Assembly: GCA_022800625.1 (NCBI GenBank)
Contig: JAAWQR010000002.1
Coordinates: 25,596-89,595 of the forward strand
Reading direction: 5' to 3'
Source of the DNA: Clostridiales bacterium
GTDB taxonomy: Bacteria > Bacillota > Clostridia > Oscillospirales > CAG-272
DNA: 64,000 nucleotides
The position numbers and the translations under genes were made by a program. This document shows positions 25,123-49,550 of the stretch, in pieces (position 1 is the first letter of the stretch; the number at the start of each line of letters is the position of its first letter). The notes beneath the pieces are model-generated. The model searched no databases, was not told where the DNA came from, and saw nothing but the letters and a program-made list of their open reading frames with translations.

Positions 25123-26112
25123 TTAATAGACATATTGTTTGCGGTACATATCAAGCTGATCATTCCATGCAGAATAATTCGTATCTTCACGTCTGTCGGG
25201 AAGATTGCAGTTTTCGGAAAAATAATTTCCTAAATAAGAGGTGACCTTCATTGCGCCGTAAGCATTGCAGTGATAAGGGTCTCTGTAATCCGTTGCGGTG
25301 TCAAAGCCGATCAGCTCTGTATTTTGGTTCAAATCAATAAAATCAATATTGTATTCCGCAGCAAGATCCTTTACCGAATTGCAGCGCGGAATACTGTTCG
25401 CTTCTTCTAAAGCCGGAGAGTTAAACAGCAGGGGAGTTATTTCATTATCAATACACAGCTCTATTATTTTTCTGAGATATTCTTCTGCCGTCGGATAAAT
25501 TTCCATTTTGTAATCGGTTGGATATTCAGGGTTCGGTTCGGCAGGAGTGCAGTCCGTACTTATATAAGCGCCTTTTGTAAGCGAAGTGATTTTCTTATAA
25601 TCTTCGCTTGTAACTTCTTTCCATCTCGAATGAAATCTGATGATATTAAATATGTACTCAGACATTTCGCTCTTATCAAACAAATCAAAGATTGCCTGAT
25701 ATTTAATAGGAGAAAAAGACATATTATCGATTTGAACGTGAGCATATTCGTTTGAAGAAATTTTTGTATCGTAAATTATCCCTGATACGTCAACGACAAC
25801 GACCTTCGGAGACTGATACCTGAGAGCTTCCTTTAACTGATAGTACGACTGCGGCAAAAGCTGTGCCGAGCTTGCAAAGACATATGAAGCAATTCCGTAT
25901 CTGTCATAAAGCTCCATAGGATAGATTGAACACATCATATGCGATGAACCTATAAATACAACGTCAAGGGAGTTTTTAGGCTCGTCATAAAACGGCAAAA
26001 CAATATTAGCTTCGTTTTTGTTTCTCAAAACGAACGTAGCGTAGGAAAACAGAACACAAAATATTAGCATAAAAGCCGTAACTTTTACGATTCTGAAAAT
26101 TGTACGTTTCAT
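25123..26112 (-). CDS. DltD-like / SGNH-hydrolase-fold protein with N-terminal membrane anchor
   Basis: N-terminal TM helix, VVFIGSSHM block-I-like motif and C-terminal DPYHCN (DxxH-like). Positioned after the MBOAT gene, as dltD follows dltB. Confidence 0.6.
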   Translation of the reverse strand: MKRTIFRIVKVTAFMLIFCVLFSYATFVLRNKNEANIVLPFYDEPKNSLDVVFIGSSHMMCSIYPMELYDRYGIASYVFASSAQLLPQSYYQLKEALRYQSPKVVVVDVSGIIYDTKISSNEYAHVQIDNMSFSPIKYQAIFDLFDKSEMSEYIFNIIRFHSRWKEVTSEDYKKITSLTKGAYISTDCTPAEPNPEYPTDYKMEIYPTAEEYLRKIIELCIDNEITPLLFNSPALEEANSIPRCNSVKDLAAEYNIDFIDLNQNTELIGFDTATDYRDPYHCNAYGAMKVTSYLGNYFSENCNLPDRREDTNYSAWNDQLDMYRKQYVY

Positions 26113-26127
26113 GTAAAACACCAATCT

Positions 26128-27702
26128 TTAAAACTGGAAGTAAATAAACGATGCGGAAGAGTATCCCGGACCGTAGATTCCGTAAATTAAAACAGCAAAA
26201 ATAAAAGCAAAATAAATTATCCAGCGAAGCCACAGTCCCTGCTTTGAAATAACAGACCGCGGATCGATTTTCTTATAACGGAACAGATCGACCGCAAATA
26301 AGACCGCAACGGCAACCAGAGCGACTTTTAAATCCTTTGCATCAAGACCGATACCGAGAGGAGTGCTCAGAGGAACGGCAGGACTTAAAACAGACATGAA
26401 TATTCCCTTTGCCTGACTGAGAGAATCGCTTCTGAAGAGCACATATCCGACGCATACAAGCGCAAATGTTTTAAGTATCTGCACCAGCTTGTAGCTCGGT
26501 CTTTCTCTGTCAAGAGAAAGCTTATCAACTGCCTTGTCAAATAACGGAGCAAGGAGCATAGAGAGAATTATTAAAATTCCGTAGTACACGCCCCACGCAA
26601 CGTAGTGCCAGCTTGAACCGTGCCAAAGTCCCGTGAAAAACCATACACACAGCAGAGCTATAACGGTTGTAGTTTTAGATGACACGCCTTTTCCGAGGGA
26701 TTTTTTGAGCTTTTTACCGAGAGCGGAGCACCAACCCGAACGCATTACCGGATAGAAAAGATATTCGCGGAACCATGAACCGAGCGTCATATGCCATCTG
26801 CGCCAAAATTCAGGTACGGAAGCCGCAAAATACGGAGCGTCGAAATTCTCCGCCATTTTAATTCCCATGACTTCGGAAGCGCCGAGCGCAATATCCATGT
26901 AACCTGCAAAGTCTGCATATATCTGTATTGCATATAAGATGCAGGCAAATATAATTTCAGCTTTTCCGTATGAAGCATAATCTGCCCATACCGTATTGAC
27001 CGCTATGGCTAATCTGTCAGCTATTACGAGCTTTTCAAAAAATCCGAACGTCATACGCTGCAGACCGAACATTGCGCGGTCATAGTCAAACGAGCGTCCC
27101 TCAAAAAGTCCGCCGGAAACAAGATCCTGATATCTTCCTATAGGTCCCTGCATTATTTGCGGGAAATATGATGCAAACAGCGCGTATTTGAAAAAGTTCT
27201 TTTGAGGATCGCAGACTCCCCTGTAAACGTCGATAATATATCCGATAACCTGAAATGTATAAAATGATATTCCGACGGGCAGGACAAGAGATAAAGTATG
27301 CGGAGAGAAGTCAAAGCCGAATAATCCAGTAAATTTTGCCAGACTTAAAACTGAAAAATTATAATATTTAATAAAGAAAAGTATTCCGAAATTTATAAGA
27401 ACAGCGGCGGAGACAACAAGTTTCTTTTTTCTGTCGTTTTTTCGTCTCAGAGCTTTCTTTTCTTCCTTTCCCATGTCAGGAGGAACTGAAAAGCGCTCTG
27501 TGATTTTTCCTATTGCAAGAGCCGCGATGTAGGTTGATATCGTTGAAAATACAAGATAAAAGCCGTACTTTATACTTGCAGAGAAATAAAAGCAGTAGCT
27601 TGATATTAAAAGCCAAATCCAACGGTATCTTTTCGGAAAGATAAAATATCCTATAAATACGGCTGATATAAACAGAATAAACTTTAAAGATGTAAAAATC
27701 AT
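26128..27702 (-). CDS. MBOAT-family membrane O-acyltransferase (DltB/AlgI-like)
   Basis: Polytopic 524-aa protein with EFWRRWHMTLGSWFREY and the WHGSSWHY histidine region. Confidence 0.85.
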   Translation of the reverse strand: MIFTSLKFILFISAVFIGYFIFPKRYRWIWLLISSYCFYFSASIKYGFYLVFSTISTYIAALAIGKITERFSVPPDMGKEEKKALRRKNDRKKKLVVSAAVLINFGILFFIKYYNFSVLSLAKFTGLFGFDFSPHTLSLVLPVGISFYTFQVIGYIIDVYRGVCDPQKNFFKYALFASYFPQIMQGPIGRYQDLVSGGLFEGRSFDYDRAMFGLQRMTFGFFEKLVIADRLAIAVNTVWADYASYGKAEIIFACILYAIQIYADFAGYMDIALGASEVMGIKMAENFDAPYFAASVPEFWRRWHMTLGSWFREYLFYPVMRSGWCSALGKKLKKSLGKGVSSKTTTVIALLCVWFFTGLWHGSSWHYVAWGVYYGILIILSMLLAPLFDKAVDKLSLDRERPSYKLVQILKTFALVCVGYVLFRSDSLSQAKGIFMSVLSPAVPLSTPLGIGLDAKDLKVALVAVAVLFAVDLFRYKKIDPRSVISKQGLWLRWIIYFAFIFAVLIYGIYGPGYSSASFIYFQF

Positions 27703-27717
27703 ATCCCGAAACTCACC

Positions 27718-27957
27718 TTAGGCTTCACGCTCAATAATATCCGCCATATCTCCTACATTTTTCATTCCGACAATGCTTTTCATATCAAACTTTATATCAA
27801 ATTCGTCCTCAACCGCTGAAATCAGCGTGATGTGCACAAGCGAATCCCATCCGTCAACGTCTGCGGCTGTTGTATCTTCGGTCACTGTTAGCTCCTCGTC
27901 GTCAAATACATCTCTGAATACTTCATTAAGTCTTTCAAATATTTCTTCTCTGTTCAT
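27718..27957 (-). CDS. acyl carrier protein (DltC-like)
   Basis: 79-aa acidic protein with DVDGWDSLVHITLISAVEDEF. Confidence 0.8.
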   Translation of the reverse strand: MNREEIFERLNEVFRDVFDDEELTVTEDTTAADVDGWDSLVHITLISAVEDEFDIKFDMKSIVGMKNVGDMADIIEREA

Positions 27958-27958
27958 T

Positions 27959-29737
27959 TTAGTTTTCCACCTTTATATACTTATTTTTATTTTGATAACT
28001 TTCAATGTTAAGACGCCATTCTCCGGAGTCTTCGCTTTCGGATATTTTTTCAAATCCGAGAGAGGAGTAAAAATCTTTAACCATGGAGTTTTTCGCAGTC
28101 TTATAATAATACCCTTTAAGATATTTTATTCCCGCAGAGGCAGCTTCAGCTACCAAAGAATCAAGCATTGCAAGTTCCATGTCTCTCTTCAACACGCGGC
28201 AGCTCATGAGCCAAAGTCTTATGTGTAAAGAATCGCCGTCTTTTTCGCCGATTACGACCGTAACGACTCCGTTGTCGCCGTATTTGTCCGATAATTTTCC
28301 GTAAAGTCTTATGTATGATTCACTTTTCGCTATCTCTTCCATTTCACTTTCGGATATGCGCCATGTTGTGAGATTGAATTGATTGGATTTGTTTGTAAGC
28401 TGAGCTATTCTCGGAATATATACAGGTTCAAAATCACGAATAACGGCGTTCATCGACAAAGACGACAGATATTCTCCGTAATCTGCAAATGAGTTCTGCT
28501 CAGCAGCTCTTTTTACGTTTGAGCGGTACATGTCGTTTCTCTTCAGATCGTCGCCTGAAAGCTCGGTGACTTCAAAGAATCTCGAACGGTCTATTATCCC
28601 TATATAATTTTCCGGAGATAGCATATCGGGAGCATCAACTTCGGGAAGGCTTGCGTTTACCATAGCGCGTTCTGCCGGGTTGTCATCGACAAAAACAATA
28701 CTGTCCGAGCCTATATTCAGTTCAGATGCAATTTCCGCTATATTCCTGTCCTTTGAATTCCAATTTGCCTTTATAATAATAAAGTCGTCGGGTTTAAGCG
28801 TTCCTTCGGGATGATTCAGTCCCGCCAGTGCATTTTCATGATCGTTCTTTGAATTGACGTTTAATGTAATTCCAATCGAGGACAATTCCTTAATATATGC
28901 CTGAAATTCGCTGAATACCTGACCCATAGAGGTTTCATGGCCTATTTCAATGCCCTCAACTCCGTCATCGCCGACAACTCCGCCCCACAGGGTATTGTCA
29001 AGATCAAGTGCCAGAGCTTTTTTATTTTTACCATATATTGCCTTGATTATTGATGCGAGATTAAAAGCAAATTCGGGAATCGCGTCCATAGACATGCAGT
29101 ACTTGTACATGTGCCAAAAGAGAGGATCCGCCCATTTTCGGATTCCGTAATCAGCGGCGAGATAGTTGATATCGTTTATGAAAAATCCGCTTGTGTTTTC
29201 GGCATACTGTGCAAACCTCATGTTGAGCCTGTTAATGAAATTCGTGCGTCCTCTGTTGTCTGAAAAATCTAAATTTCCGAGTAAGCGGTAATACGGCGCC
29301 TCGAAATTATTTTGAATGATTACCGCGTTTGTATTTTTTCTGAGCGATTCCCATGCCGCTTCAAAACGGGAGTATTCCGAGTCAAGCAAAGCTTCTGTTT
29401 CGTCGGATGATGAAGACGGAGCGGGAAATAATGTTATGTTTCTGGAGGACGTATGTATAAATACAATATCGGGATCAAAAATTTTAAGCTCGTCGGGAAG
29501 AAACATTGCATCTTGCCACCACTGCCCGAATTCCGATTCATAAAATACCGCCTCTATGCCGTAGTTCAGCAAGAAAAGCTCTGTAATTTCTTTAATATCG
29601 TGGGTTGTAGATCCGCCGAGCATTGCAATTTTTTTCTTTAATCTCGGCTTACCGTCCGCTAGGAGTTCTTTTTTTATTGATCGTCTTTTTTTCAGCACAG
29701 TCTGTGCATCGAAGGGATATTTTAACAGCGGGTGCAT
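27959..29737 (-). CDS. FkbH-like HAD-IIIC phosphatase-fold protein with C-terminal GNAT-like domain
   Basis: ALDLDNTLWGGVVGDDG (the DxDxT HAD motif of the IIIC/FkbH subfamily). AGGAGG RBS before ATG 29737. The longer track ORF start is not supported. Confidence 0.75.
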   Translation of the reverse strand: MHPLLKYPFDAQTVLKKRRSIKKELLADGKPRLKKKIAMLGGSTTHDIKEITELFLLNYGIEAVFYESEFGQWWQDAMFLPDELKIFDPDIVFIHTSSRNITLFPAPSSSSDETEALLDSEYSRFEAAWESLRKNTNAVIIQNNFEAPYYRLLGNLDFSDNRGRTNFINRLNMRFAQYAENTSGFFINDINYLAADYGIRKWADPLFWHMYKYCMSMDAIPEFAFNLASIIKAIYGKNKKALALDLDNTLWGGVVGDDGVEGIEIGHETSMGQVFSEFQAYIKELSSIGITLNVNSKNDHENALAGLNHPEGTLKPDDFIIIKANWNSKDRNIAEIASELNIGSDSIVFVDDNPAERAMVNASLPEVDAPDMLSPENYIGIIDRSRFFEVTELSGDDLKRNDMYRSNVKRAAEQNSFADYGEYLSSLSMNAVIRDFEPVYIPRIAQLTNKSNQFNLTTWRISESEMEEIAKSESYIRLYGKLSDKYGDNGVVTVVIGEKDGDSLHIRLWLMSCRVLKRDMELAMLDSLVAEAASAGIKYLKGYYYKTAKNSMVKDFYSSLGFEKISESEDSGEWRLNIESYQNKNKYIKVEN

Positions 29738-29769
29738 GATTCCTCCTAAATACTTGAATTTTTTCTGTT

Positions 29770-29937
29770 TTCGCACGGCAGGGCCGTGTATTGACATTTA
29801 TATTTTTATTAACCCAGCATTTTTTCCTTAAATAGCTGCCATATGGCGGCAAAACAATGAAGAAATCAGCCGTCAATAAAAATATCCTTGAAAATTGTCG
29901 CACGGCAAAGCCGTGCAATGACATTCATATTTTTATT
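29770..29937. repeat. two 41-nt direct repeats (36/41 identical), each with a 6-bp hairpin
   Basis: tcgcacggcagggccgtgtattgacatttatatttttatta (29770-29810) and tcgcacggcaaagccgtgcaatgacattcatatttttatta (29897-29937). Confidence 0.8.
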
Positions 29938-30128: not shown

Positions 30129-30980
30129 ATGACGCAGTTATATTACAGGGATCAAGTGAAAAAATTTGAGGAATATCTTATAAATGAGGAAAAAAGCAGC
30201 GCAACGATAGAAAAATATATGCGTGATGTGCGCGGTTTTTTGACATATATTTCAGGTTTGTCCGAAGAAACATCTATTTGCAAAGAACATACGGTGGAGT
30301 ATAAAAAAATGCTTTCGGATAACGGATATGCTCCTGTCAGTATAAACTCTATGCTGACAGCCGTGAACGGTTTTTTGAAATTTTGCGGCTTTCAGAATTT
30401 GTGCGTAAAGCTTTTAAAAATTCAAAGACAAATATTTTGCCGAGAAGAGAGGGAACTTGGCAAGGTCGAATACCGGCGTTTGATCGAGGCATCAAGAGGT
30501 ACGCGGCTGTTTTATATAATTCGCGCTATCGGCGAAACTGGTATACGAGTCAGTGAGCTTCAATATATAACTGTTGAGGCAGTGCGTTCCGGCCGTGCTC
30601 AGGTCAGAAACAAAAATAAAATCCGCGTGATTTTTATACCGAAAAATTTACAGGCGGTTTTGAAAAAATATATTGCAGAGACGAAAGTAAAAAGCGGAAG
30701 CATTTTTGTGACCAAGGGCGGCAAGCCGATAAATCGCAGTAACATTTGGAGGGATATGAAAAGCTTATGTAAACGTGCGGGTGTTTCCGCCGAAAAAGTT
30801 TTTCCTCATAATCTGAGGCATCTTTTTGCCCGTACTTTTTACAGCATAGATAAAGATATAGTCCGCCTTGCAGATATCCTCGGTCATTCAAGTATTGATA
30901 CTACAAGAATTTATACGGTTGAGTCGGGGGCAAAACATATTCTCGGACTTGAAAGGGTACAAAAAATGCTTACAACATAA
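30129..30980 (+). CDS. tyrosine recombinase (XerC/XerD / phage-integrase family)
   Basis: N-terminal SAM-like domain. Catalytic ETGIRVSEL (Arg), HNLRHLFA (HxxR) and LGHSSIDTTRIY (His, Tyr). Confidence 0.85.
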   Translation: MTQLYYRDQVKKFEEYLINEEKSSATIEKYMRDVRGFLTYISGLSEETSICKEHTVEYKKMLSDNGYAPVSINSMLTAVNGFLKFCGFQNLCVKLLKIQRQIFCREERELGKVEYRRLIEASRGTRLFYIIRAIGETGIRVSELQYITVEAVRSGRAQVRNKNKIRVIFIPKNLQAVLKKYIAETKVKSGSIFVTKGGKPINRSNIWRDMKSLCKRAGVSAEKVFPHNLRHLFARTFYSIDKDIVRLADILGHSSIDTTRIYTVESGAKHILGLERVQKMLTT

Positions 30981-30995
30981 TTTTGATTATGTTGT
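30975..30995. repeat. left inverted repeat of candidate inverton, within the 13-6-13 palindrome 30968-30999
   Basis: acataattttgattatgttgt. The surrounding gcttacaacataa-ttttga-ttatgttgtaagc is a perfect palindrome and overlaps the recombinase stop codon. Confidence 0.8.
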
Positions 30996-31030
30996 AAGCG
31001 GTGATAGATATTTAATTTCAACACGCAGTC

Positions 31031-31059
31031 ATTATATCATAAAAGGAATAAATCGTCAA
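31031..31059 (-). promoter_or_regulatory. near-consensus sigma-A promoter inside the invertible segment, currently pointing left
   Basis: Minus strand reads TTGACG (31059-31054), 17 nt, TATAAT (31036-31031), with a TGA extended -10. Confidence 0.6.
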
Positions 31060-31122
31060 TATAATTCGCCGATAATTTTTAAATACCGTCAAAATTATAC
31101 ATATTGCGATATGCAGATAAGA

Positions 31123-31156
31123 CCGGAAAATTTACTGATTTTTCCGGCTGCTTTTT
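31123..31156 (+). terminator. weak rho-independent terminator inside the invertible segment
   Basis: ccggaaaa-9 nt loop-ttttccgg followed by ctgcttttt. Confidence 0.45.
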
Positions 31157-31252
31157 GTGCGCCATATAGGCGGTTATTTAGTTGCGATATCAGCTGATAT
31201 TTATCAATTTACTCTTTTTTATCTTGGATTCTTCATGCAGAAAGGAATTAAA

Positions 31253-31273
31253 ACAACATAATCAAAATTATGT
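31253..31273. repeat. right inverted repeat of candidate inverton
   Basis: acaacataatcaaaattatgt is the exact reverse complement of 30975-30995. Confidence 0.8.
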
Positions 31274-31427
31274 AATGAAGGCTTACTTTAAACAAAAAAC
31301 ATTGCGCATAATACAGATATTTACCACGTAAAAGCGACAGAAATAATGATAAGTGATTATATAAAAAATCTATTTTACAGATCATGATATTGTGAAAAAA
31401 ATGGTACATAAAATTTTATATTTGCTA

Positions 31428-31456
31428 TTGCAGTAAATTACAATTTGTGATATAAT
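31428..31456 (+). promoter_or_regulatory. sigma-A-type promoter upstream of the giant surface protein gene
   Basis: TTGCAG (31428-31433), 17 nt, TATAAT (31451-31456), with TGA directly upstream. About 340 nt of leader before ATG 31799. Confidence 0.5.
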
Positions 31457-31798
31457 GTTTTTTGCAAAAAAATGCTGTTTTGTCTTAAATATGGCGAGAT
31501 TTATCGCTTTGCCGCCATTGGTTTGAAGTTATATTTAATTATAAGCATGGATCAGTCGACCTTGAGTTTATACTTATAGAAATGCCGCAATCCGAATACA
31601 TAATGTTGTTTTTTATTATAAAAATAGATAATTCCATTATTGTTACTCGTGTATGTACGGCTTTTTTGCGTGTATTTTAAATCGATGCGGACTGATTCTA
31701 CACAATGCTTTTAAATTATAATGCTTATTTTGTACAGTTTTAAATTGATTCTGATTCTTTTAAAGGATTTTGAATAAATTTGTAAAGGAGACATTATT

Positions 31799-34700
31799 AT
31801 GAACAGATTGAAATTTTCAATCAGACGGACAACTGCTGTATTTTTGGCTGTGCTGATGACTGTTTCCGCATTAAACGGAGCTTTCCTTGTAGGCGCGCTT
31901 CCTACAGCAAAAGAAGTCAAAACGGTAACATCAGCCGAATTGATTGCAAAAGAGTATGCCGGACAGCTGTCGGACGCTGAAATTCAGCTTCTTAAATCCG
32001 GAATGCTCTCGGATACTGTGTATACATATACAGTGCCCGGCGACGACGACGGTCTTGTGACTGTAGATGCTGAGAAAAAGCAGATAAGCGCTTCTTCCTA
32101 TACGGATTCCAACAATAATATATGGAAACCAGACGGTGCCTCTGTGGTTTATACGGAAGATGGTGCAGAGAGTACGGAAAGAGTCGAGTTGAATTCTGAC
32201 GGAGACGCATTTAACGGCACTTTTGCATATGCCGGAAACGCATATAGCGTTCAAGTTAAGTATGTGTTGAAGACTTCCGTATCTTCTGACGAGCAGAAGG
32301 CGCTTCTTGAAAGCGCAGCTGCTTTGAAAAACGGTGTTGATAATCTTGACGCTTTGAATTCTCCTGATATCACATCAACACTCGCAACGCTTGAAACTTA
32401 CCTTTATGAGCTGAAGCGTCTTGTTGACGGTGTAGATGTAACAATTCCGGGCAGCTCGGCAACTATAAATATGAAGATAGTTGACGAGGGTTTTGTAAAA
32501 GGAGTTACAAGTCTTGATAATCAAAAGGAAGCTAACGGCGGTCATTTTGATTTAACTGTTCTTTTAAATGATTACAGTAAGGCTCAGAGTAAGAATGAAT
32601 ACCTGGTAAATCATGCTTCAGAAGTTCGCGCTGCTGCCGAAAAGACATATGAAGATCTTATCGGCATATATACATATAAGCAGAGCATCGAGAATTACGA
32701 AAACTTGATGAATCAGCTCGGATTCGATAACCAGCTTGCTTCAATTGCTTTCAATAGTATAAAGATAACGACTGACGCAATTAAGCCGGTTATTGACGCA
32801 GATTGGTCTGTTACAGCCGGAACAGCTTTAAGAGATGATCTGAGCGCAGCTCAGTACAAAGTTCTTGATACTGTTATTGAAAAAATTGAAACTACCGTTG
32901 ATCTTGACGGTTTTGCATATGCTGATACATTTACTGCTGACGAAAACGTAATAACGGTAAATCAGAACAGACATGATGTTTCGGTAACTGTTTCGGCTGA
33001 AGTTGTAAGTCCTGTTCTTGCCGATACAAGCGATACGGTAAAACTTGCGCCTTACAGCGCGACAGTAACTGTTGCGGACGGAGCGAGCGCTGAAGACGTT
33101 CTTAAGGCTGTTACAGAATCGGGAATTGAGAATCAGGCGCTTGCAGGATGGAATTCCGAAAATGCGCTTTACTCCATTGATCCGGAGAATTACGTAAGAA
33201 GCTCATCGGAGCTTTCGGGTGTTCTGAGCGAGGATATCGATTATAATATTTCATATTCTCCCAAATCATTTGAGATCACCTGTGACGGAGAATACGGTAT
33301 TCCCGCAAGCGTTCCTTTCGGATATAATATCACGCTTCCTTCATATGAAGATGATACTCAGGTTTATGAGTATATTGTAAACGGAGCTGAGTACCTTCAG
33401 GGCGATATTTTCCGAGTGACGGGAAATACTGAAATCACACGCAAGCAGGATAAACCGAAAACCGAATATGAAGTAAACAAGATAGCAGCTTCGCTTATCG
33501 GAAACGATGAAGCGGCGGCTGTGCTGAACAGCTCCGCTTTGCTCGGAGAAAAGATCAGCCTTCGCACTCCCGACGGCGATTTGGTAAAGGTTGAATGGGC
33601 TGACGGAAATTATAAGGTGACGGCGGCAACTTATAATGCTGCTTTTAACGGACTTCTTTGGATACCGATAAACGGTATTGTTAAGACTGAAAACGGAAGC
33701 ATTGTCGAAACATTTGATATTACATCAAACGGCAGTGCTTATGTCGGAACATTTAATTCATCGGTCTTCGATCATGTTGAAGTAAATTACAGATTGGATC
33801 TGAACGGAATCATCGGCGGAGAAACTCTCCTGAAAACGATGAATCTTCCGTATGTTCTTACAACTGAAGCTTCACAGTTAAAGGATCAGCTTGCGATTCT
33901 GAATAATCAGTACAGCAATATGGCTCAGCTGAAGGATCAGGCAAGCACGATTCGCATGGCTATTCGCGGCGCCGAGGACGGCGCTCTTACTGACGCGATA
34001 AAGGAAGCAGGTCTTGATCTTGTTGACAGGTGCTTTAATCCCGATACGGGTAATTTGTACGCTTATGATTATATGACAGAGTACCGTGCAGGCGGACTCG
34101 GCTGGTACTACAAGCAGGATCAGAGCGGCGCATTTGTAAATTATGATAAAATGAATGCACAGCTTGCGGTTCTAAAGCGCGATCTTCCCGTTCTTTGCGA
34201 CGAAGACGGCGTGTTTAAAGCGTTCCTTGACGGAGTTAAAACTCCCGGAGGAAACAGCGCGGGTAAATATTATACTGTTCTTGAGGACATGGTTGAAGCC
34301 ATTTCCGCACTTGATCTTGTTAAACCCAACACATCGGTTAACGGTGCCGGCGAAGAACTTTCAGGACTTATCCGTGCGATTGAAAATGCGATCGGAAAAA
34401 CGCAGGAGATCACATCTGTTGAAGGATATGATGTTTTTCTCAATGCTGTAATGATCGGCTCTGCTCCCGGACGCGCCGTTGTAAAAATAACGGTTAAGGT
34501 TCAGAACGCACAGGGAACTGTAATTTCAGAAAATTCTCTTACAAGTCCGAGCATTCAGGTCGGTGAACTTACATCTGCTGACGCTGCTGTGCTGAATGAC
34601 CTCTTTGCTTCGCTTGAAGCTGGAGTTGACGGTCACTATGAACTGAGTGCAAGCTCCGATAAGATGCTTGAGGCAGGTTATGAGCTTCGCGGAAACGAAA

Positions 34701-37700
34701 ATCTTACATTTATATATGTACCTAAGACATACAACGTACATTTTATCTCTCCTGAGGGAACTGCTGTAGACGGTGTGTCGGATACAGTTATCAGCTACAG
34801 CGGCAATGTACAGCTGAATCTTACCGCATGCCGCGAAGCAGGTTATCGCTATGATTATATCATCGGCGGAGAACGGGTTCGCGTTATGTCGGATATGACA
34901 TACAGCGTGGGCGACAAGTTTGATTCTCTCTTTGAGAACGGCGAGACAACGATTGTTGTTGAAAAAGTTTATGTAGCTCGCGAAAACTTCCTTAACATGG
35001 TAGATAAGCTCAACCGCTCTGTTTCGGATATGACGTTTGCAAGCGGCGGACATAACTGCCTTACTGCTGCGTTTATTCCGGTTGAGGACAGCGATGGCAA
35101 TATGTCTGTTGTGCTTCGTGTTGCCCCGCAGAAAAGTATGGATCCGGCTGATCTTGCAAAAGGTATTATGCAGACCGTAATTTCCGCAGGATATAATAAT
35201 GTATCTGTCGGCGGCAGTACTCTGTACAGCGGAAGCGAAGATAAAATTTATCTTCAGGCCGTCGTAGATATGCTTCTCAACAGCGGTATGGGACTTAAAA
35301 CCATTGCCGAGGCTGTTGATGAGAACGGCAGAATCAACGAGATGTCCATCGACGGAGACGTTGCTTTTGATCTTGACAATATGGGGGGATTTGCTCCTAC
35401 AGGCAATTCGTATGTAAACAATGCTGAAACATACGGCGGAAAGCTGCTTGAATCTACTCTCGGACTTGACGGCGTAAATGTTGCGCTTTATGTAACTATT
35501 GAGGACTTTGGTCTTAGCACATCTACTCTTTCAAAGCTCAGAAGCTCTGTCGAAAATCTCCGCAGTTATGTTGACGTAACTTTTGAGAACGGAGAAGCGG
35601 TCGCTTCTGTAAGAATTCCCGATAAAGCTTATCAGGCTTATCTTGCGGCAATGCTTGTAACAGGTAACTCAGAGCTTGCCGAAGCATGCGAGCCGGATAT
35701 CGGAAAATCTGTAGAATATATATATAATCTGCTTCTTCCGATACTGACCGATACAGATGTTACGGTAGATACATATCAGAATACTCTCGCAATGCTCGGA
35801 GTACATAAAGATATAACATCGGCTGCACGCATTTATACTACTCTTCAGAAGATTCTGATTCATGTTATAGACAATGCAACAGTTAAGGGCGGTTCTGTCG
35901 GATCAACATATACAGCTGAATGCGCATACTCGCCTGCTGCTCTGATCGACAGCTTGGGAGTCGGCTCTCTCAAGGGAGCAATCGCAGAGGCTGCCGACGG
36001 CGCAGCTATCAAGGCAAATCTCAGAGCTACGCTTCAGAACAGAGACAGCTCGTATGAAGCAATTGTTATTGATCCTCACGCCGCAGGAATCAAGAACAAA
36101 GCAGGATTTACCGGCGACGTTAAGTCGGCGCTTGCAAAAGTCGGCGACAACTCGATCGTTATTCTGACATCAGACGTTACAGGTGATCTTACCTGTGACA
36201 AGACGGTATATATCGATCTTAACGGACATAATCTTGACGGAAATATTACAGGCGCAGGAATTACGCTTGTTGACAGCACGTTTGCAAATAACGGTCAGAT
36301 CAGCGGAAATGTTTTCGTAAAGAGAGACGCCCGTACAAACGATTACTACTTCCTTACTGTTGAAGGAAATGAAGTCAGAGTAAATATTAAAGCAGACATT
36401 TTGAACAGGGACGCCTTCGGCGGACTCAAAACTCTCGCTTTCGATCTGGCGTTTGATCTTGCGCTCAACTATTATACAAGCGCAGCTCTTTCCGTAGACG
36501 GAAACGAGATATACAACACCGATAAGGTTCAGGATCTTGTTGATCTTTATGTGAACGGCAGAAATGCCGCAACGGTTAACGAGCTTCTTGATGTTATCAA
36601 CTGTGAAGGTCTTACCGCTTTTGCAAACAGCATGATCGCAAAACTCACAGACTTCGGAACTATGGCTCAGAAGGCTGAAAGAGGAAATGCGCTATGTACG
36701 TTTGATGTTTCGACATCAGCATGGGATCTGAAGCTTTACCGAGCTGAGGGTAATTATGTTACAGCCGATATCGCACCCTCCGCAGAGAGAGGAAAGAATC
36801 AGACTATCGGTATTTATCTTGCAGGCGAAGAAAATGATGTAAAAGCGGCAACGAAGCTGCTTGCAGCTCTCGGAGACGTACTTGACATGTCGGCTGAGGT
36901 TGCGTTTGAAAGCATAGACTACGCTGACAAGAATATAAACATTAAGGCTGTCGGCAAAGCTGCTGCAAGATTTGATCTTACCGATCCCGATTATGCGGTT
37001 CTGTTTGCAGCAGTTGTAGCTTACGGCTCGGAAGACGCTGTACGCACGGCTCTTACAGACGGAATCAAGGCTTACTACAGTGAAAACAGCACAGATGTGC
37101 TTCATGAAGCCGTAAACGAGCTGACTACCGCTCAGGTTATCGGTGCGCTTCGTAAATTTAACTCGGGCAGCGATATTGCTCAGATGATGGCTGATCTCGG
37201 ACTTGGCGATATTGTCGGAGACAGCGCGATTGAAATGATGGGCACATACCGCAGCGTTATTAACGCTATGTGCTATCTTATCCGCCGTGCCGATGTTAAC
37301 GGAAATGATGCAAAGCTCGGCTCACGCGAATCCTCCGAGACATACGGACTCTATAACCTTATTGATAAGAGCGATATTAACCGCACAGGTTCAAAAAAGA
37401 TATACAACAGCTACGGCATAGGCTATGACCTAACTGTTGAATCTCTTCTCCTTGACGTTCGTCTCTTTACAGACGAAAAACCTGAAGAATTTGCAATTAC
37501 AGTTATTGATTCAGAGGGTGTAACTCATAATACGAACGATCCGTCCGAAGCGTTTGCCCTTGCCGCAAACGGCGGTATGATCATATTTAACAAGGATATT
37601 GTTCTGAGCGAGAATGTCACCATCAACAGCAGCATCGTTATGAACGGAGCATACAGACTTGCATTCACAAATGACGCTAAGCTTCTCATCTCAGAGAACG

Positions 37701-39373
37701 GCGAGCTTGTGTCCGACGGAGATATATCGGGAAATACAGCGGCTCTGAACCCTGATTATTATGAGCTTAAATCGGAAGAACTTGCAGACGGCAAGGTAAG
37801 ATATACGGTTTCACTTTACGACATTATCGTTACAAAAGACGGCTCCGATAAGCCGCTTTACGCAGGACACAGTCTGAAGGACGCATTCGCAGCTGCAGCA
37901 GATAATGACGGCAGCGTAATAACTCTCAACGGAACCGCAGTTCTTGATGGAAATGTAAGCATAAATAACAGTGTAACCGTTAAGGGCGCGGATAAGATCT
38001 CATTTGCAGATAATGCAAAAATTCTTATCGGTGCAGACGGTTCTCTGACAACAGACGCCGATGTTACAGTCAGCGTAGCTCCGCTTGATACTGCGTACTA
38101 CGACCTGAAATGCGAATCATCTGCCGACGGTACATTCAGATACACGGTATCGCTTTACGATATTATCGTAACTGCCGCAGGCTCTGATACACCTCTTTAT
38201 ACAGGATACAGTCTGAAAGACGCATTCGCGGCGGCAGATATTGTCTGTGACAGCACGATCACGCTTAACGGAGATGCGGCGCTTGAAGAAAATGTTCTTG
38301 TAAACAACAGAGTTATCATTTCAGGTGCTGACAAGATCACGTTTACGAATGGTGCGGCACTTATGATAGGCGGCAGCGGAGCGATTATTTCAGACTCCGA
38401 TATCGGTTCGAATGTAGCTCTTGAGGACAGCGTAAACTATTCACTTCTTGCAGAAAAACTCGGCGACAGATATGTATACTGCGCAGAACTTTATGCAATA
38501 GTAGTTACAAACGACGGTTCTGTCCGCTATCGCGGCGATAACCTCAAGCGTGCTCTTAATCTGGCAAGTGCCGGAAGCACAGTCAGAGTTAACAGCGCAG
38601 TTACATGGAACTGTGAAGGTGCGGTTGACGAGAGATATCTCCTTGACCGTGAGATCACTCTGCTCGGAGCAGATAATATGTCCCTCAGAGACGGAACTTA
38701 CTTCAGCCTCACGGTAGACGGCTCGCTTATAAGCGACCGTGAGTTCAGTGCAGGCGTCGATGTAAGATCACAGTCCAAATACAGCTCTGTTACAAAGATT
38801 TTTGACAACGGATTCTTTAAGTATAAACTTGCTCCGATCGATCCTGTACTCACAGGCGCCGCTCCGACAGTAAATACTTCAAGTAGTGTAATCTACGGTG
38901 CGAAGGTTGACAATGTGAACAGATATATTTATCTTGACGTTCAGTCGAGCGGAATCACCGAAGCTCAGTTTGCGGCTCTCGTAAGCTTCAGCGGAGCGGC
39001 GGATAACGCTTCTCACATTGATGTCAAGATAGATGAAGGCGGACTCGCTGAGAACAATAACAGATATACGATACGCAACGGTGCTACAGTTACTGTTACA
39101 GCTCAGAATCCCGATTCAAGCGTTGCACCGTCGGTTAAGTACACCGTTATAATCATGGGTGATACCAACTGCAACGGTATGACGGACGCAGGAGACTGCC
39201 GTGCAATTCAGTATCATGTTCTCGGTATGGAACTTTTGAAAGACGCATCTCTCTTAGCGGCAGACATAAACGGTCAGTCCTCGGAGCTTACGGGAAGCGT
39301 TGATACAGGTGACGCAAGAGTTAATCAGTTTAAAATTCTGAACGGTTCAGAATACAAAAGTGCATTGAAATAA
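31799..39373 (+). CDS. giant secreted surface protein (2524 aa) with Sec signal peptide, beta-helix-like repeats and a dockerin-like C-terminus
   Basis: N-terminus MNRLKFSIRRTTAVFLAVLMTVSALNGAFL. C-terminus GDTNCNGMTDAGDCRAIQYHVLG...AADINGQSSELTGSVDTGDARVNQFKIL resembles a duplicated dockerin Ca-binding segment. AAGGAG RBS. Confidence 0.8.
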   Translation: MNRLKFSIRRTTAVFLAVLMTVSALNGAFLVGALPTAKEVKTVTSAELIAKEYAGQLSDAEIQLLKSGMLSDTVYTYTVPGDDDGLVTVDAEKKQISASSYTDSNNNIWKPDGASVVYTEDGAESTERVELNSDGDAFNGTFAYAGNAYSVQVKYVLKTSVSSDEQKALLESAAALKNGVDNLDALNSPDITSTLATLETYLYELKRLVDGVDVTIPGSSATINMKIVDEGFVKGVTSLDNQKEANGGHFDLTVLLNDYSKAQSKNEYLVNHASEVRAAAEKTYEDLIGIYTYKQSIENYENLMNQLGFDNQLASIAFNSIKITTDAIKPVIDADWSVTAGTALRDDLSAAQYKVLDTVIEKIETTVDLDGFAYADTFTADENVITVNQNRHDVSVTVSAEVVSPVLADTSDTVKLAPYSATVTVADGASAEDVLKAVTESGIENQALAGWNSENALYSIDPENYVRSSSELSGVLSEDIDYNISYSPKSFEITCDGEYGIPASVPFGYNITLPSYEDDTQVYEYIVNGAEYLQGDIFRVTGNTEITRKQDKPKTEYEVNKIAASLIGNDEAAAVLNSSALLGEKISLRTPDGDLVKVEWADGNYKVTAATYNAAFNGLLWIPINGIVKTENGSIVETFDITSNGSAYVGTFNSSVFDHVEVNYRLDLNGIIGGETLLKTMNLPYVLTTEASQLKDQLAILNNQYSNMAQLKDQASTIRMAIRGAEDGALTDAIKEAGLDLVDRCFNPDTGNLYAYDYMTEYRAGGLGWYYKQDQSGAFVNYDKMNAQLAVLKRDLPVLCDEDGVFKAFLDGVKTPGGNSAGKYYTVLEDMVEAISALDLVKPNTSVNGAGEELSGLIRAIENAIGKTQEITSVEGYDVFLNAVMIGSAPGRAVVKITVKVQNAQGTVISENSLTSPSIQVGELTSADAAVLNDLFASLEAGVDGHYELSASSDKMLEAGYELRGNENLTFIYVPKTYNVHFISPEGTAVDGVSDTVISYSGNVQLNLTACREAGYRYDYIIGGERVRVMSDMTYSVGDKFDSLFENGETTIVVEKVYVARENFLNMVDKLNRSVSDMTFASGGHNCLTAAFIPVEDSDGNMSVVLRVAPQKSMDPADLAKGIMQTVISAGYNNVSVGGSTLYSGSEDKIYLQAVVDMLLNSGMGLKTIAEAVDENGRINEMSIDGDVAFDLDNMGGFAPTGNSYVNNAETYGGKLLESTLGLDGVNVALYVTIEDFGLSTSTLSKLRSSVENLRSYVDVTFENGEAVASVRIPDKAYQAYLAAMLVTGNSELAEACEPDIGKSVEYIYNLLLPILTDTDVTVDTYQNTLAMLGVHKDITSAARIYTTLQKILIHVIDNATVKGGSVGSTYTAECAYSPAALIDSLGVGSLKGAIAEAADGAAIKANLRATLQNRDSSYEAIVIDPHAAGIKNKAGFTGDVKSALAKVGDNSIVILTSDVTGDLTCDKTVYIDLNGHNLDGNITGAGITLVDSTFANNGQISGNVFVKRDARTNDYYFLTVEGNEVRVNIKADILNRDAFGGLKTLAFDLAFDLALNYYTSAALSVDGNEIYNTDKVQDLVDLYVNGRNAATVNELLDVINCEGLTAFANSMIAKLTDFGTMAQKAERGNALCTFDVSTSAWDLKLYRAEGNYVTADIAPSAERGKNQTIGIYLAGEENDVKAATKLLAALGDVLDMSAEVAFESIDYADKNINIKAVGKAAARFDLTDPDYAVLFAAVVAYGSEDAVRTALTDGIKAYYSENSTDVLHEAVNELTTAQVIGALRKFNSGSDIAQMMADLGLGDIVGDSAIEMMGTYRSVINAMCYLIRRADVNGNDAKLGSRESSETYGLYNLIDKSDINRTGSKKIYNSYGIGYDLTVESLLLDVRLFTDEKPEEFAITVIDSEGVTHNTNDPSEAFALAANGGMIIFNKDIVLSENVTINSSIVMNGAYRLAFTNDAKLLISENGELVSDGDISGNTAALNPDYYELKSEELADGKVRYTVSLYDIIVTKDGSDKPLYAGHSLKDAFAAAADNDGSVITLNGTAVLDGNVSINNSVTVKGADKISFADNAKILIGADGSLTTDADVTVSVAPLDTAYYDLKCESSADGTFRYTVSLYDIIVTAAGSDTPLYTGYSLKDAFAAADIVCDSTITLNGDAALEENVLVNNRVIISGADKITFTNGAALMIGGSGAIISDSDIGSNVALEDSVNYSLLAEKLGDRYVYCAELYAIVVTNDGSVRYRGDNLKRALNLASAGSTVRVNSAVTWNCEGAVDERYLLDREITLLGADNMSLRDGTYFSLTVDGSLISDREFSAGVDVRSQSKYSSVTKIFDNGFFKYKLAPIDPVLTGAAPTVNTSSSVIYGAKVDNVNRYIYLDVQSSGITEAQFAALVSFSGAADNASHIDVKIDEGGLAENNNRYTIRNGATVTVTAQNPDSSVAPSVKYTVIIMGDTNCNGMTDAGDCRAIQYHVLGMELLKDASLLAADINGQSSELTGSVDTGDARVNQFKILNGSEYKSALK
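37490..38830 (+). repeat. four tandem in-frame repeats of about 105-110 aa inside the giant gene
   Basis: Recurring YTVSLYDIIVT..GSD.PLY.G.SLKDAFAAA....S.ITLNG.A.L..NV..NN.V...GADKI.F. Confidence 0.7.
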
Positions 39374-40800: not shown

Positions 40801-42264
40801 GTGGAAAAATGGACCAGAAAAGAATACGGCACATGGGATGAAGCGTTCCGCGGTCTTACACCGCGAATCCGTCAAAGCTCTGTCAGGATTGCATCATATA
40901 CACGAGAGCTGTTTGTGCAGGCGTGCGCCGACTCATTTGCCAAGGGAACGCATGACGGAAGTGCAAGGATCCGCGGTAAATATGCCGATCTTGCATATAA
41001 ATGCGGCATGTATCACCAGCTCGGAAAGGCTCTTGTGCCGCCAGAATATCAGATTTTTCAGAGCGACTTTACAGATGAAGAAAAATCTGTTTATTGGAAG
41101 TATATGACGGACGGACGGACGCTTGTCTCCATTCTTCAGGAAAGAGGCGCTGCCGCTAAAAGAAAGCGAGGCATGCCTGACGGAGAAGAAGCGCCGACTG
41201 ATAATATTACATGGCTGATGCTCCGCGAAGCGTGTGAACAGCATATGGAACGCTGGGACGGAACAGGCCTTCCCGAAGGCAGGCGCGGAGACGAAATCAG
41301 CCCTGTTGCACAGATCGTCGGACTTGCGCATGAGCTTGACAGACTTGCATCCGAAACAAAGTCAGAAAAGCCGTTTGACGAAGCGCTTGAAAAGCTGAAA
41401 GGCGAGGTCGGTGCGGCTTGGTCGCCTGCTCTTATAGATGTGCTGACTCACGCTAAGGAAGCGTGCCGCGGAGTATACAAAAAATATATTCATTATACGA
41501 TGACGCTTCCCGAAACGATACCGCTTGTTGAAAAGCGAGAGGACAGACCTATGGGACTTAAATACCGTCCTATGGTAAGCGATAAAAACGGCAGCGTATC
41601 CTATTACGAAGCGATTCCATGGTACGGCGGAATTGCCGATAATCCCGATGAAACGGAGAGCACGGAAGACGTTTCGGAACTGCTCAAAAAAAGCGAGCTT
41701 ATTTCGGATATATCTGTTTACTTCATGTATGAGGCTGCGGACGCAGTTCTGAGACTTGAAAACTGCAAGCTTGACGTCAGCGGAATTATCTTAAATGTGC
41801 CTGCGAATTTTTATTCCGAGAGCGAGCAGCTTTTCAGAATAAATCAAGTTTTTGAAGATGAAGGAATATCAAAGGACAAGCTTCTGTTTACTATTCCTGA
41901 GTCGGTTTTACTGAGTGCTGACAGAGAAACAGCTGAGAATGTCATTGAATATCTGAACGCCGGCTGCAAGTTGGTTCTTGACGGATATCACCCGGATAAG
42001 ATCAGCACAGAGCAGCTGCGTGAGCTTGGATTCAGTATGATTCGCATGTCTCCCGAGCTTAATCTTAAATCTGAAACTGCGGTTCAAATAAAATCTCTCC
42101 GTGAGAGCGGCTTTACGCTTATCGGCGGAGCTGCCGATTCGCAAAACTCGCTTGCCTGGCAGCTTGCCTGCGGAGTTGTTGCCGTCGGCGGACCTGTAGT
42201 GGGCGCGCTCGCCTGTGAAAACGAAATGATTCGCGACGGGCTTGTAAGAGAGCAGACAATATGA
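40801..42264 (+). CDS. degenerate HD-GYP-like plus degenerate EAL-like protein (candidate c-di-GMP sensor)
   Basis: MERWDGTGLPEGRRGDEISPVAQIVGLAHELD matches the HHExxDGSGYP region, but the upstream HD is HQ (YHQLGK). C-terminal YRPMV...YYEAIPW, ILNVPANF, FTIPES and VLDGYHPD follow EAL-domain spacing with catalytic residues replaced. GTG start 8 nt after AAGGAG. Confidence 0.6.
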   Translation: MEKWTRKEYGTWDEAFRGLTPRIRQSSVRIASYTRELFVQACADSFAKGTHDGSARIRGKYADLAYKCGMYHQLGKALVPPEYQIFQSDFTDEEKSVYWKYMTDGRTLVSILQERGAAAKRKRGMPDGEEAPTDNITWLMLREACEQHMERWDGTGLPEGRRGDEISPVAQIVGLAHELDRLASETKSEKPFDEALEKLKGEVGAAWSPALIDVLTHAKEACRGVYKKYIHYTMTLPETIPLVEKREDRPMGLKYRPMVSDKNGSVSYYEAIPWYGGIADNPDETESTEDVSELLKKSELISDISVYFMYEAADAVLRLENCKLDVSGIILNVPANFYSESEQLFRINQVFEDEGISKDKLLFTIPESVLLSADRETAENVIEYLNAGCKLVLDGYHPDKISTEQLRELGFSMIRMSPELNLKSETAVQIKSLRESGFTLIGGAADSQNSLAWQLACGVVAVGGPVVGALACENEMIRDGLVREQTI

Positions 42265-47954: not shown

Positions 47955-49529
47955 ATGGAGGAAAACATGGATCACTTTTTAAAGTATTTCTTTCAGGATA
48001 TAGGCAGGGTGTTCCGTGCTTTTCTTGAGATTCTCAGCTCGTTTTTCAACTTTTTGAATTATCTGCTCAATTTTCCGATGCGTCTTGAGCTTATCCGTGA
48101 ATATAACGGTGAATTTTCCGTCATGGAATGGGTGATGCTTGTTATTACCGAGATCGTATTGATCGCGCTGATTGTGTTGCTTATTTTAGGACTTTTGAGA
48201 CTGTTCAGAAAATTGTTCAGATTCAGGGTTCCGGTCAAAAAGTATGATGAACTTACACGTCAGGTGAGAAATCTGCAAAGAGATCTGCTTCGCGCAAACT
48301 ACGAAAAGGATCGGCTTCTTAATATGAAAGTCGCTGAGCTTGGCGGAAATCCCGAACTGCCCGAGGAAGAGGGCGAGGACGGTGATAAGCCGGATCTTCC
48401 CGAGAGTAACAGAAATACCTTTGAGTCTCCGTGCATAGCGCCGGGGGACAGCAGATTCTTCAGGCTGACAACGGTTGATAATTTCTACAAAACCGATTAT
48501 ATTCCGCCGATATATGATTCTGACTTTGATCTTGCGGGTATTTGTGAGCAGTTCAGGCTGTTTGCAGCTTCAGAACTCGGACTTTACTATGATCTTGATA
48601 TGATGCGTTACTTTATTGCATCGATGGGCGCTGCGCGGATCATCATTTTGCAGGGTATTTCAGGTACGGGTAAAACATCGCTTCCGTATGCGTTCGGTAA
48701 ATTTGTCGGAAAGGATACTACTGTCGTATCCGTGCAGCCTGCATGGCGTGAACGTACTGAGCTTTACGGTTATTACAATGAATTTACCAAAAAATACTCG
48801 GAAACAGACTTTTTGCGTGCGATTTATGAGGCTAATTATTACAGAGATCCGCATATCGTTATTCTTGATGAGATGAATATTGCTCGAGTCGAATATTATT
48901 TTGCCGAAATGCTTTCCATTCTTGAAATGCCGAGGCAGGATGAGTGGAAGGTAAATATCGTGTCTTCTCTGTGGGCTAACGATCCATGCCTTATAAACGA
49001 CGGCGCTGTACAGATACCGAACAATGTCTGGTTTGTAGGAACGATCAATAACGACGACTCAACCTTTGCTGTATCCGACAAGGTGTATGACCGTGCTATT
49101 CCGATTGACCTAGACGCAAGAGCTGAAGCGTTTGAGTGTGAACACACTTCAGCTGTCAGCATTTCAACGGATCGCTTGGCAAAGCTGTTTGAAAAGGCAA
49201 AAGAAGAGTATACTGTATCCGATGAAATGTGGAAAAAGCTTGATGAGCTTGACGCTTATCTTGTTAAAAATTTCAAACTCACTTTCGGTAACCGTATAAA
49301 TAAACAGATCGGCGACTTTATTCCGTGCCTTATCGCCTGCGGCGGTACTGAGATACAGGGCGCTGACTTTATGGTGGCAAAAAAAGTGCTCAGAAAATTT
49401 GAGTCTCTTTCTCTCGGTTTTATGAAAGATGAGTTGACAAAATTCAACGCATATCTTGATAAGCTGTTCGGTAAAAACAGTATGCCGATATGTAAGGAAT
49501 ACATAGATTATCTAAAGAAAAACAACTAA
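47955..49529 (+). CDS. membrane-tethered McrB-like AAA+ NTPase
   Basis: N-terminal TM WVMLVITEIVLIALIVLLILGLL and a coiled coil. Then LQGISGTGKTSLPYAFGKF (Walker A), SVQPAWRERTELYGYYN, HIVILDEMNIARVEYYFAEMLSILE (Walker B) and WFVGTINNDDSTFAVSDKVYDRA, as in the McrB/AAA_5 family. The start may be ATG 47967. Confidence 0.7.
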   Translation: MEENMDHFLKYFFQDIGRVFRAFLEILSSFFNFLNYLLNFPMRLELIREYNGEFSVMEWVMLVITEIVLIALIVLLILGLLRLFRKLFRFRVPVKKYDELTRQVRNLQRDLLRANYEKDRLLNMKVAELGGNPELPEEEGEDGDKPDLPESNRNTFESPCIAPGDSRFFRLTTVDNFYKTDYIPPIYDSDFDLAGICEQFRLFAASELGLYYDLDMMRYFIASMGAARIIILQGISGTGKTSLPYAFGKFVGKDTTVVSVQPAWRERTELYGYYNEFTKKYSETDFLRAIYEANYYRDPHIVILDEMNIARVEYYFAEMLSILEMPRQDEWKVNIVSSLWANDPCLINDGAVQIPNNVWFVGTINNDDSTFAVSDKVYDRAIPIDLDARAEAFECEHTSAVSISTDRLAKLFEKAKEEYTVSDEMWKKLDELDAYLVKNFKLTFGNRINKQIGDFIPCLIACGGTEIQGADFMVAKKVLRKFESLSLGFMKDELTKFNAYLDKLFGKNSMPICKEYIDYLKKNN

Positions 49530-49550
49530 CAGTCGAAGGGAGGAGTCATA

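Follow-up and report, generated by a model that had tools for sequence, protein, structure and literature searches.

Within a 64,000-nucleotide stretch of Clostridiales DNA from contig JAAWQR010000002.1 (the window, by which we mean the whole stretch analyzed), a tyrosine recombinase gene is followed on the same strand by a gene for a 2524-residue protein, and the two are separated by a short region with a perfect inverted repeat. The initial annotation, made from the sequence alone, had taken the DNA between the repeats for an invertible promoter switch of the giant gene. We followed up this proposal by a computational analysis of the window and of related loci. The locus is composed of the following features.

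30129 to 30980, plus strand: Xer-like tyrosine recombinase of 283 residues, the presumed invertase (Pfam domains, catalytic residues).
30959 to 30999, minus strand: predicted orientation-dependent intrinsic terminator of the leftward exit, made of the IRL hairpin and AUUUUUUGU (terminator scanner, RNA fold).
30968 to 30999, no strand: left site (IRL), a perfect 14-4-14 palindrome that contains the repeat at 30975 to 30995 and the recombinase stop codon at 30978 to 30980.
30996 to 31252, no strand: putative invertible segment, 257 bp enclosed by the IRL and IRR repeats.
31031 to 31059, minus strand: predicted sigma-70/SigA-type promoter, TTGACG-17-TG-n-TATAAT (consensus match), whose -10 box ends 35 nt from IRL.
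31109 to 31161, plus strand: internal hairpin AGACCGGAAAA...TTTTCCGGCT with a U-run (RNA fold).
31253 to 31273, no strand: right site (IRR), the exact reverse complement of 30975 to 30995.
31274 to 31798, plus strand: leader to the giant gene, with a candidate fixed promoter at 31428 to 31456 and a possible dead site at 31597 to 31612.
31799 to 39373, plus strand: presumed cargo, a 2524-residue protein with a signal-peptide-like N terminus and a sub-threshold dockerin match at the C terminus.

The inverted repeat is present as first described: 21 nucleotides at 30975 to 30995 are matched with 100% complementarity at 31253 to 31273, with 257 nt between the arms. When up to three mismatches were allowed, the motif occurred only at these two places in the 64 kb, and there was no match in 100 dinucleotide shuffles. 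The left copy lies in the palindrome at 30968 to 30999, which our tool parses as 14-4-14 and the annotation as 13-6-13, two parses of the same sequence, and which does overlap the TAA stop codon of the recombinase gene. The reported reversal of the spacer was also recovered, as the site centre TTTG (TTTTGA in the longer parse) at IRL reads CAAA (TCAAAA) at IRR. Since this asymmetric centre is the same in both sites, strand exchange between them would be possible and its outcome would be fixed as inversion. The segment and its repeat pair occur in a single copy in the window, which led us to reject a multi-copy element or miniature inverted-repeat transposable element (MITE).

The recombinase matches the Pfam families Phage_integrase (4.9e-24) and Phage_int_SAM_1 (3.5e-09). 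Its reading frame is full length and its catalytic residues are complete: R140, K164, H227, R230, H253 and Y262 are invariant in an alignment of 26 sequences. The nearest solved structures are archaeal XerA/XerC-like proteins, followed by XerD and XerH, and the best NCBIfam matches are likewise of the XerA, XerD, XerC and XerH types. The protein nevertheless falls below all NCBIfam equivalog cut-offs, with scores of 155.9 versus 220 for XerA, 116.6 versus 329.6 for XerD, 109.1 versus 335 for XerC and 55.3 versus 267 for XerS. The tyrosine-type DNA invertase models NF007370 and NF007371 (FimB/FimE) gave 28 bits for a cut-off of 221-222. Judged from its sequence, the window protein is thus an intact Xer-like recombinase of a family without a name, because the XerA/C/D/S and FimB/FimE models all score below their cut-offs. 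This family comprises at least 120 clusters, the best 120 being 59-100% identical to the window protein, and yielded at least 600 matches in species-representative genomes. As to a link with phages, 16 relatives were found among 2.9 million viral contigs.

The near-consensus promoter proposed on the minus strand of the segment stood up well. TTGACG (31059-31054) is separated by 17 nt from TATAAT (31036-31031), which follows the TG of an extended -10 element, and 11 of 12 positions match the consensus. The promoter now faces the recombinase gene and points away from the giant gene, which would be the OFF orientation for the cargo. Behind it lies the internal hairpin, with an 8-bp stem CCGGAAAA/TTTTCCGG followed by CTGCTTTTTGTG (approximately 31109-31161). 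It folds at -13.3 kcal/mol with a UUUU run on the plus strand, and the minus strand lacks a U-run. Its predicted terminator-like character in the window is therefore confined to the plus strand, that is, to the present orientation, in agreement with the earlier suggestion that it blocks read-through from the recombinase gene. A simple scanner missed this hairpin because the T-run begins 4 nt past the stem.

The IRL hairpin with AUUUUUUGU was called terminator-like by the scanner and has a predicted folding energy of -17.7 kcal/mol (z = -5.6). Its 14-bp stem depends on the AAGC contributed by the present end of the segment, which supplies 4 of the 14 pairs. We modelled the flipped segment in silico. 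In this model, the IRL stem shrinks to a 9-bp hairpin of -6.8 kcal/mol, and a rightward transcript over IRR would form a 7-bp AU stem with no U-run (minimum free energy, -9.1 kcal/mol; z = -0.98). The promoter would lie at approximately 31189-31217 and face right, with its -10 box 582 nt before the ATG at 31799 and a leader of about 575 nt. No plus-strand terminator-like element was found between 31240 and 31830, that is, from IRR to the giant gene. The idea that inversion aims the promoter at the giant gene and disarms the terminator is thus borne out as far as a modelled flip goes.

We then compared the locus with a set of about 190 related loci, 80 from species-representative genomes (of the at least 600 matches), 80 from metagenomes, and the others from contigs of specific relatives. 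Repeats of at least 14 nt were counted in the 134 homologous loci that extend at least 330 bp past the recombinase stop codon. An inverted repeat is present at or just after the stop codon in 123 of these 134 loci, showing that the repeat pair is conserved in the same place beside orthologous recombinases; the annotation had named a lack of such conservation as grounds for abandoning its interpretation. The left arm begins within -11 to +50 nt of the stop, except in one chimeric contig (L067) and in three loci where it starts later, and 51 loci show overlap between the perfect repeat and the stop codon. Repeats have a median length of 21 nt and segments a median length of 227 bp (range, 171-375). 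A site logo derived from 95 loci reads A(C/A)CACATAAT-NNNN-ATTATGT(T/G)GTA, in which ACATAAT and ATTATGT are near-invariant and the centre is free; the window site, GCTTACAACATAATTTTGATTATGTTGTAAGC, agrees with it. These 95 parsed loci have 58 distinct central hexamers, none of which is palindromic, and cassettes of one contig or assembly carry different site centres. Two cassettes are found on one contig in the case of L040 and L066. In L084, whose recombinase is 65% identical to that of the window, the stop-codon site ACAACATAATCAAAATTATGTTGT is the window site with its centre reversed. It has no partner repeat in the downstream sequence that was searched, and it might be a solitary site or have a more distant partner.

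Aligned in the orientation of the promoter, the segments share conserved blocks besides the repeats: AAAnnATTGACA, a 17-nt spacer and TGnTATAAT, located 13-49 nt from one repeat. This end-proximal promoter was detected in 60 of 65 loci and then in 111 of 123 in an enlarged set, and the window promoter aligns with the conserved block of the 60 related segments. It faces the recombinase in 88 of the 111 loci and the cargo in 23, with the same distance from promoter to repeat in both classes. A GC-rich hairpin, often of the form AGACC...GGTCT, is conserved behind the promoter. Of 105 loci, 73 have a terminator-like form of it on the strand opposite to that of the promoter and 68 on the promoter strand; these counts include 51 loci in which it looks terminator-like on both strands. 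We therefore rejected the notion that the internal terminator is always unidirectional as a rule of the family, although it holds for the window. Similarly, a terminator is found beside the recombinase side in 68 of 116 loci, versus beside the cargo side in 33 of 116, which is an enrichment and not evidence that every cassette has a recombinase-side terminator. In four loci (L148, L153, L147 and L151), the right repeat is part of an extended palindrome, CAGCGGCATCAACA...TGTTGATGCCGCTG, behind which stands a T-run that reads TTTTT in most of them and TTTGTT in L151; L148 diverges there. This arrangement would be a cargo-side orientation-dependent terminator, the mirror image of the window's left repeat.

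The first gene downstream of the right repeat is usually on the same strand and 10-130 bp away. TetR regulators head 10 of 49 operons, and other cargos include YpsA, cohesin, SLH, collagen-repeat and subtilase proteins, as well as operons of signal peptidase and TasA-like (Peptidase_M73) proteins.

Inversion occurs in homologous cassettes. Loci L169 and L171, which come from different sequencing runs, encode identical recombinases that are 67% identical to that of the window. Their left flanks are identical over 800 of 800 positions and their right flanks over 38 of 38, and the segment of one is the exact reverse complement of the other over 252 of 252. In the pair L159 and L156, the flanks match at 994 of 1000 and 969 of 1000 positions and the segments are approximately 98% identical as reverse complements, with the junctions exactly at the repeats. 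Nine contigs share the identical recombinase P0083, and eight of them could be assigned to one of three isoforms of a cassette with three sites. Three have the order site-spacer-site-segment-site, two have the whole inner block inverted, and three are two-site forms in which the spacer and one of the sites are missing. Inversion between inverted sites and deletion between direct sites would be expected to give these products. More distant homologous segments are also flipped between collinear flanks. In addition, there are 17 loci whose contig breaks off in the 100 bp that follow the recombinase stop codon, versus 4 in which it does so in the 100 bp preceding the start (binomial P = 0.007), and the L067 contig consists of the left flank, site, segment, site and the reverse-complemented left flank. 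Both features are assembly signatures of mixed orientation. The metagenome scan yielded no relative closer than 67%.

These comparisons support the interpretation of the window locus as an invertible promoter switch, and we consider it very likely that the locus is a genuine, self-contained phase-variation cassette with its own recombinase. In the mechanism that we propose, the 283-residue Xer-like recombinase would bind the two inverted dif-like core sites (ACATAAT-N4-ATTATGT) and invert the 257 bp between them. Within the segment, a single strong promoter would be situated 35 nt from one of the ends, backed by a hairpin terminator. In the present, OFF state, the promoter would fire toward the recombinase gene and its transcript would within approximately 30-70 nt reach the 14-bp hairpin and U6 at the left site, with a predicted start near 31024 on the minus strand and a predicted end at about 30960, while the internal terminator would keep transcripts of the recombinase gene from running on toward the giant gene. 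In the flipped, ON state, transcription from the rightward promoter would start near 31224 on the plus strand. The right site and the leader would put no terminator-like element in its way, and it would proceed through the giant gene, encoding a secreted and possibly dockerin-bearing protein of 2524 residues, and probably through genes beyond it. The predicted junctions of the flipped form are ACATAATTTTGATTATGTTGT+TTTAATTCCTTTCTGCATGAAG on the left and AAATATCTATCACCGCTT+ACAACATAATCAAAATTATGT+AATGAAGGC on the right. From the sites, the predicted promoter and hairpins, the catalytic residues, the conserved architecture and the inversion of homologues, we infer that this copy flips, by the action of this recombinase, with an active promoter and the giant gene as its target.

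The giant gene begins 526 bp past the right repeat, with an AGGAG sequence 8 nt ahead of its ATG. Its product matches Dockerin_1 at E = 0.0068, with 17 bits for a cut-off of 22.9, and scans of Pfam and NCBIfam gave no other match than this sub-threshold one. The label of surface protein that had been attached to it is plausible given the signal-peptide-like N terminus, but it is not established, the dockerin match being sub-threshold. A search of the leader against Rfam for riboswitches or other known RNAs gave chance-level matches only. A 25-nt, 88% inverted match links 30711-30735, in the recombinase coding region, with 31498-31522, in the leader. It lies at most 15 nt from the mirror position expected of an inverted duplication and may be due to chance. 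We rejected the idea that 31274-31545 is a decayed inverted copy of the 3' end of the recombinase gene, since outside the 25-mer a global alignment scored like shuffled sequences and blastx returned nothing.

Several observations weigh against the proposed switch or parts of it. The flipped form of the window locus was not found in three public contigs obtained by look-ups with the recombinase and the giant protein (the runs SRR11195283 and SRR11195291, and one duplicate place listed for the recombinase), all of which have one orientation. Promoters and terminators were called by prediction, from consensus matches or folding energies. The 526-bp gap to the giant gene exceeds that of most relatives. 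As the leftward-exit terminator is present in only 68 of the 116 loci and about half of the internal hairpins are bidirectional, the fine transcription logic of the window is not a universal rule of the family. Finally, the leader contains a candidate extended -10 promoter on the plus strand, TTGCAG-17-TGATATAAT (31428-31456), 343 nt ahead of the ATG, which could drive the giant gene whatever the state of the switch, so that this gene is perhaps not strictly ON/OFF.

This last point underlies an alternative in which the switch is real and the giant gene is expressed constitutively from the fixed leader promoter, with a start expected near 31463. The invertible promoter would then be additive, or would mainly affect the recombinase gene, either by converging transcription or by altering the 3' end of its mRNA. 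The -10 region of the fixed promoter, TTTGTGATATAATG at 31444-31457, is identical at 13 of 14 positions to that of the invertible promoter at 31030-31043, and the leader is unusually long. Moreover, TACATAA|TGTTGTTTT at 31597-31612 equals the right repeat minus its 9 central nucleotides. When the 525-bp region was simulated 5000 times with a Markov model, 77 of the runs contained such a match (P ~ 0.015). It is possibly a dead recombination site, which would fit a former second inverton that is now locked; the match noted earlier at 31597-31611 is thus real, but its status as a relic is not established. However, the -35 box of the fixed promoter matches at 3 of 6 positions only, which is why the scanner did not call it, and in relatives the cargo gene normally lies directly behind the right repeat on the same strand. 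Antisense control of the recombinase is unlikely here because a strong predicted terminator closes the left exit. Altogether we regard constitutive expression from the leader as unlikely. Still less probable, in our judgment, is that the cassette is decayed or locked, having inherited its sites and promoter from an active ancestor. The shared orientation of all three assemblies of the window locus would fit this, but active invertons normally appear in a consensus assembly with one majority orientation, and 88 of the 111 oriented relatives face the same way. Furthermore, both 21-nt repeats are perfect with an intact centre, and the recombinase frame is full length with all catalytic residues.

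The repeats might also be terminal inverted repeats of a small nonautonomous transposon, or a site of the dif or IMEX (integrative mobile element exploiting Xer) type that serves dimer resolution or integration. Indeed, the recombinase is Xer-like, the core CATAAT-N4-ATTATG equals the chromosomal dif core (PMC3025954), and three right flanks in one species begin exactly at the right repeat. Against this, the segment and repeat pair are single-copy in 64 kb, the pair always has a recombinase gene of its own beside it and an aligned promoter between the repeats, several cassettes can occur per genome, as on the contig of L040 and L066, and the recombinase is far below the XerC, XerD, XerA and XerS equivalog cut-offs. 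The exact inversions between identical flanks in relatives largely refute this explanation, which we consider highly improbable. An invertible promoter switch remains our preferred interpretation.

The three right flanks just mentioned belong to L119, L123 and L127. Through 4.1 kb of sequence that ends with the last base of the right repeat, these loci share 98-99% identity, after which they continue into three unrelated cargos, one of which starts with an AbiH abortive-infection gene (Pfam, 1e-37). Judged from such alignments, the slot behind the switch is hypervariable. Between L148 and L153, L147 and L151, the break lies 17 nt past the right repeat, just after the palindrome that spans the repeat, which argues for ordinary replacement in that group. 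Extra exact copies of the site core stand in tandem with one repeat, 30-82 bp away, in 14 of 117 loci (among them L188, L034, L012 and L073); the sites of L188 lie at -5, +39 and +271 from the stop codon. In the case of P0083, all three isoforms occur, in different samples. We put forward, as a tentative idea that we consider less likely than not, that a portable platform, made up of the promoter segment and of the recombinase gene with the dif-like site embedded in it, is placed by gut Clostridia before varied cargo, with the variable 4-6 nt of the site centre acting as an address against cross-reaction and the right site as a point of cargo exchange. If true, this would be an Xer-derived system that joins phase variation with integron-like turnover of cargo. 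We found no mechanistic description of such a platform in the literature.

Other genes of the window deserve mention. An operon divergent from the recombinase gene (25123-29924, minus strand) encodes FkbH_N/HAD, a carrier protein (PP-binding) and an MBOAT acyltransferase, and has its own near-consensus promoter at 29963-29935. The closest relative of the window recombinase, P0002 (72% identity; L163/L164), has a switch cargo with abhydrolase, AMP-binding, decarboxylase-like, PP-binding and MBOAT genes, a set that resembles this divergent operon. A gene at 40801-42264, located two genes past the giant one and sharing its strand, codes for HD_5 (HD-GYP-like) and EAL domains and represents a possible link of the giant gene's transcription unit to cyclic di-GMP. 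Adjacent genes for AAA_5 (524 residues) and DUF2357 (611 residues) proteins at 47955-51386 have the look of an McrBC-type restriction pair.

If the switch operates as proposed, a secreted and possibly cellulosome-docked protein of 2524 residues would be phase-variable in an uncultured gut or rumen Clostridium, with a bearing on adhesion, substrate binding, or evasion of phages or host immunity. More generally, one compact module may account for much of the phase variation in Clostridia, its cargo including TetR regulators with large proteins, cohesin, SLH and collagen-repeat proteins, TasA-like fibre operons and an Abi gene. The consensus site and promoter enable the annotation of these switches straight from sequence, and the switches help explain contig breaks just past recombinase genes. 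One gene plus about 300 bp could also serve as a genetic switch for Firmicutes.

Invertible promoter switches are a well-known kind of element, and the present family is large in gut Clostridia. It has probably been catalogued already as inverton group 139 in a PhaseFinderDC survey of the hCom2 community (PMC11892184, Microbiome 2025). In that survey, group 139 counts 33 invertons (32 from Clostridia) distributed over 17 strains, and nearly all adjoin a tyrosine recombinase of "invertase group 35". Their repeats measure 13-25 nt, and the invertible segments are 206 bp long in Clostridium sp. D5 and 228 bp in Intestinimonas butyriciproducens. Flipping was seen at the read level and shifted over culture passages. 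The survey reports a statistical association only. Both lengths fall within the range of our family, in which 206 bp recurs. The likeness is one of geometry and taxon, namely Clostridia, repeat layout and an adjoining tyrosine recombinase. The present analysis describes the dif-like core, its overlap with the stop codon, the three-site isoforms and the conservation of promoter and hairpin; PMC11892184 does not describe the core, the overlap, the promoter or the terminators. Literature searches for the site sequence, and for switches by inversion in Ruminococcus or in cellulosome organisms, gave no specific result.

The relationship to the Xer/dif system is close in sequence. Apart from its centre, the family core is identical to positions 7-22 of the E. 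coli dif site, GGTGCG-CATAAT-GTAT-ATTATG-TTAAAT (PMC3025954), and the recombinases have the same fold and domain order. In contrast to dif, which is present once per replicon and is used in direct orientation on dimers, the window has two inverted sites 257 bp apart around a promoter, and related genomes can have several cassettes with differing centres. No indication of a role of the window recombinase in dimer resolution was found in the window or in the family comparison. Xer-like recombinases act as invertases in mycoplasmas as well: Xer1 does so at the vpma locus of Mycoplasma agalactiae, and Xer-like recombinases invert small promoter segments at the mpl genes of M. penetrans. Those recombinases are encoded beside surface-protein genes, which they switch by site-specific inversion, in another lineage and with other sites.

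In function, the window cassette would be of the fim type. In E. coli fim, the recombinase genes lie directly upstream of an invertible segment of about 300 bp that carries the promoter of a surface-structure gene, and the orientation of the segment alters the fate of transcripts at the recombinase side. The fim switch uses 9-bp repeats and a pair of recombinases (FimB and FimE) that are short invertases without an N-terminal SAM-like domain. RecV, in turn, serves several other switches of Clostridioides difficile besides that of cwpV, among them flgB and cmrRST. As in fim, the window recombinase gene lies directly upstream, with the promoter inside the segment; unlike fim, there is a single recombinase with a SAM-like domain, which scores 28 bits for the FimB/FimE cut-off of 221-222, and the sites are dif-like and 21 nt long. 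The fim layout is summarized in PMC2784873, as is the cwpV switch of C. difficile, in which 21-bp repeats flank approximately 195 bp upstream of a gene for a large cell-surface protein and are recombined by the Xer-family protein RecV. An intrinsic terminator forms there at the junction of repeat and segment in one orientation only, as is predicted at IRL in the window. RecV is, however, encoded away from cwpV, whose promoter lies outside the segment (PMC2784873). The analogy with RecV and cwpV that had been drawn for this locus therefore holds as a functional likeness and not as one of layout: the window cassette and its relatives each have their own adjoining recombinase and carry the promoter inside the segment.

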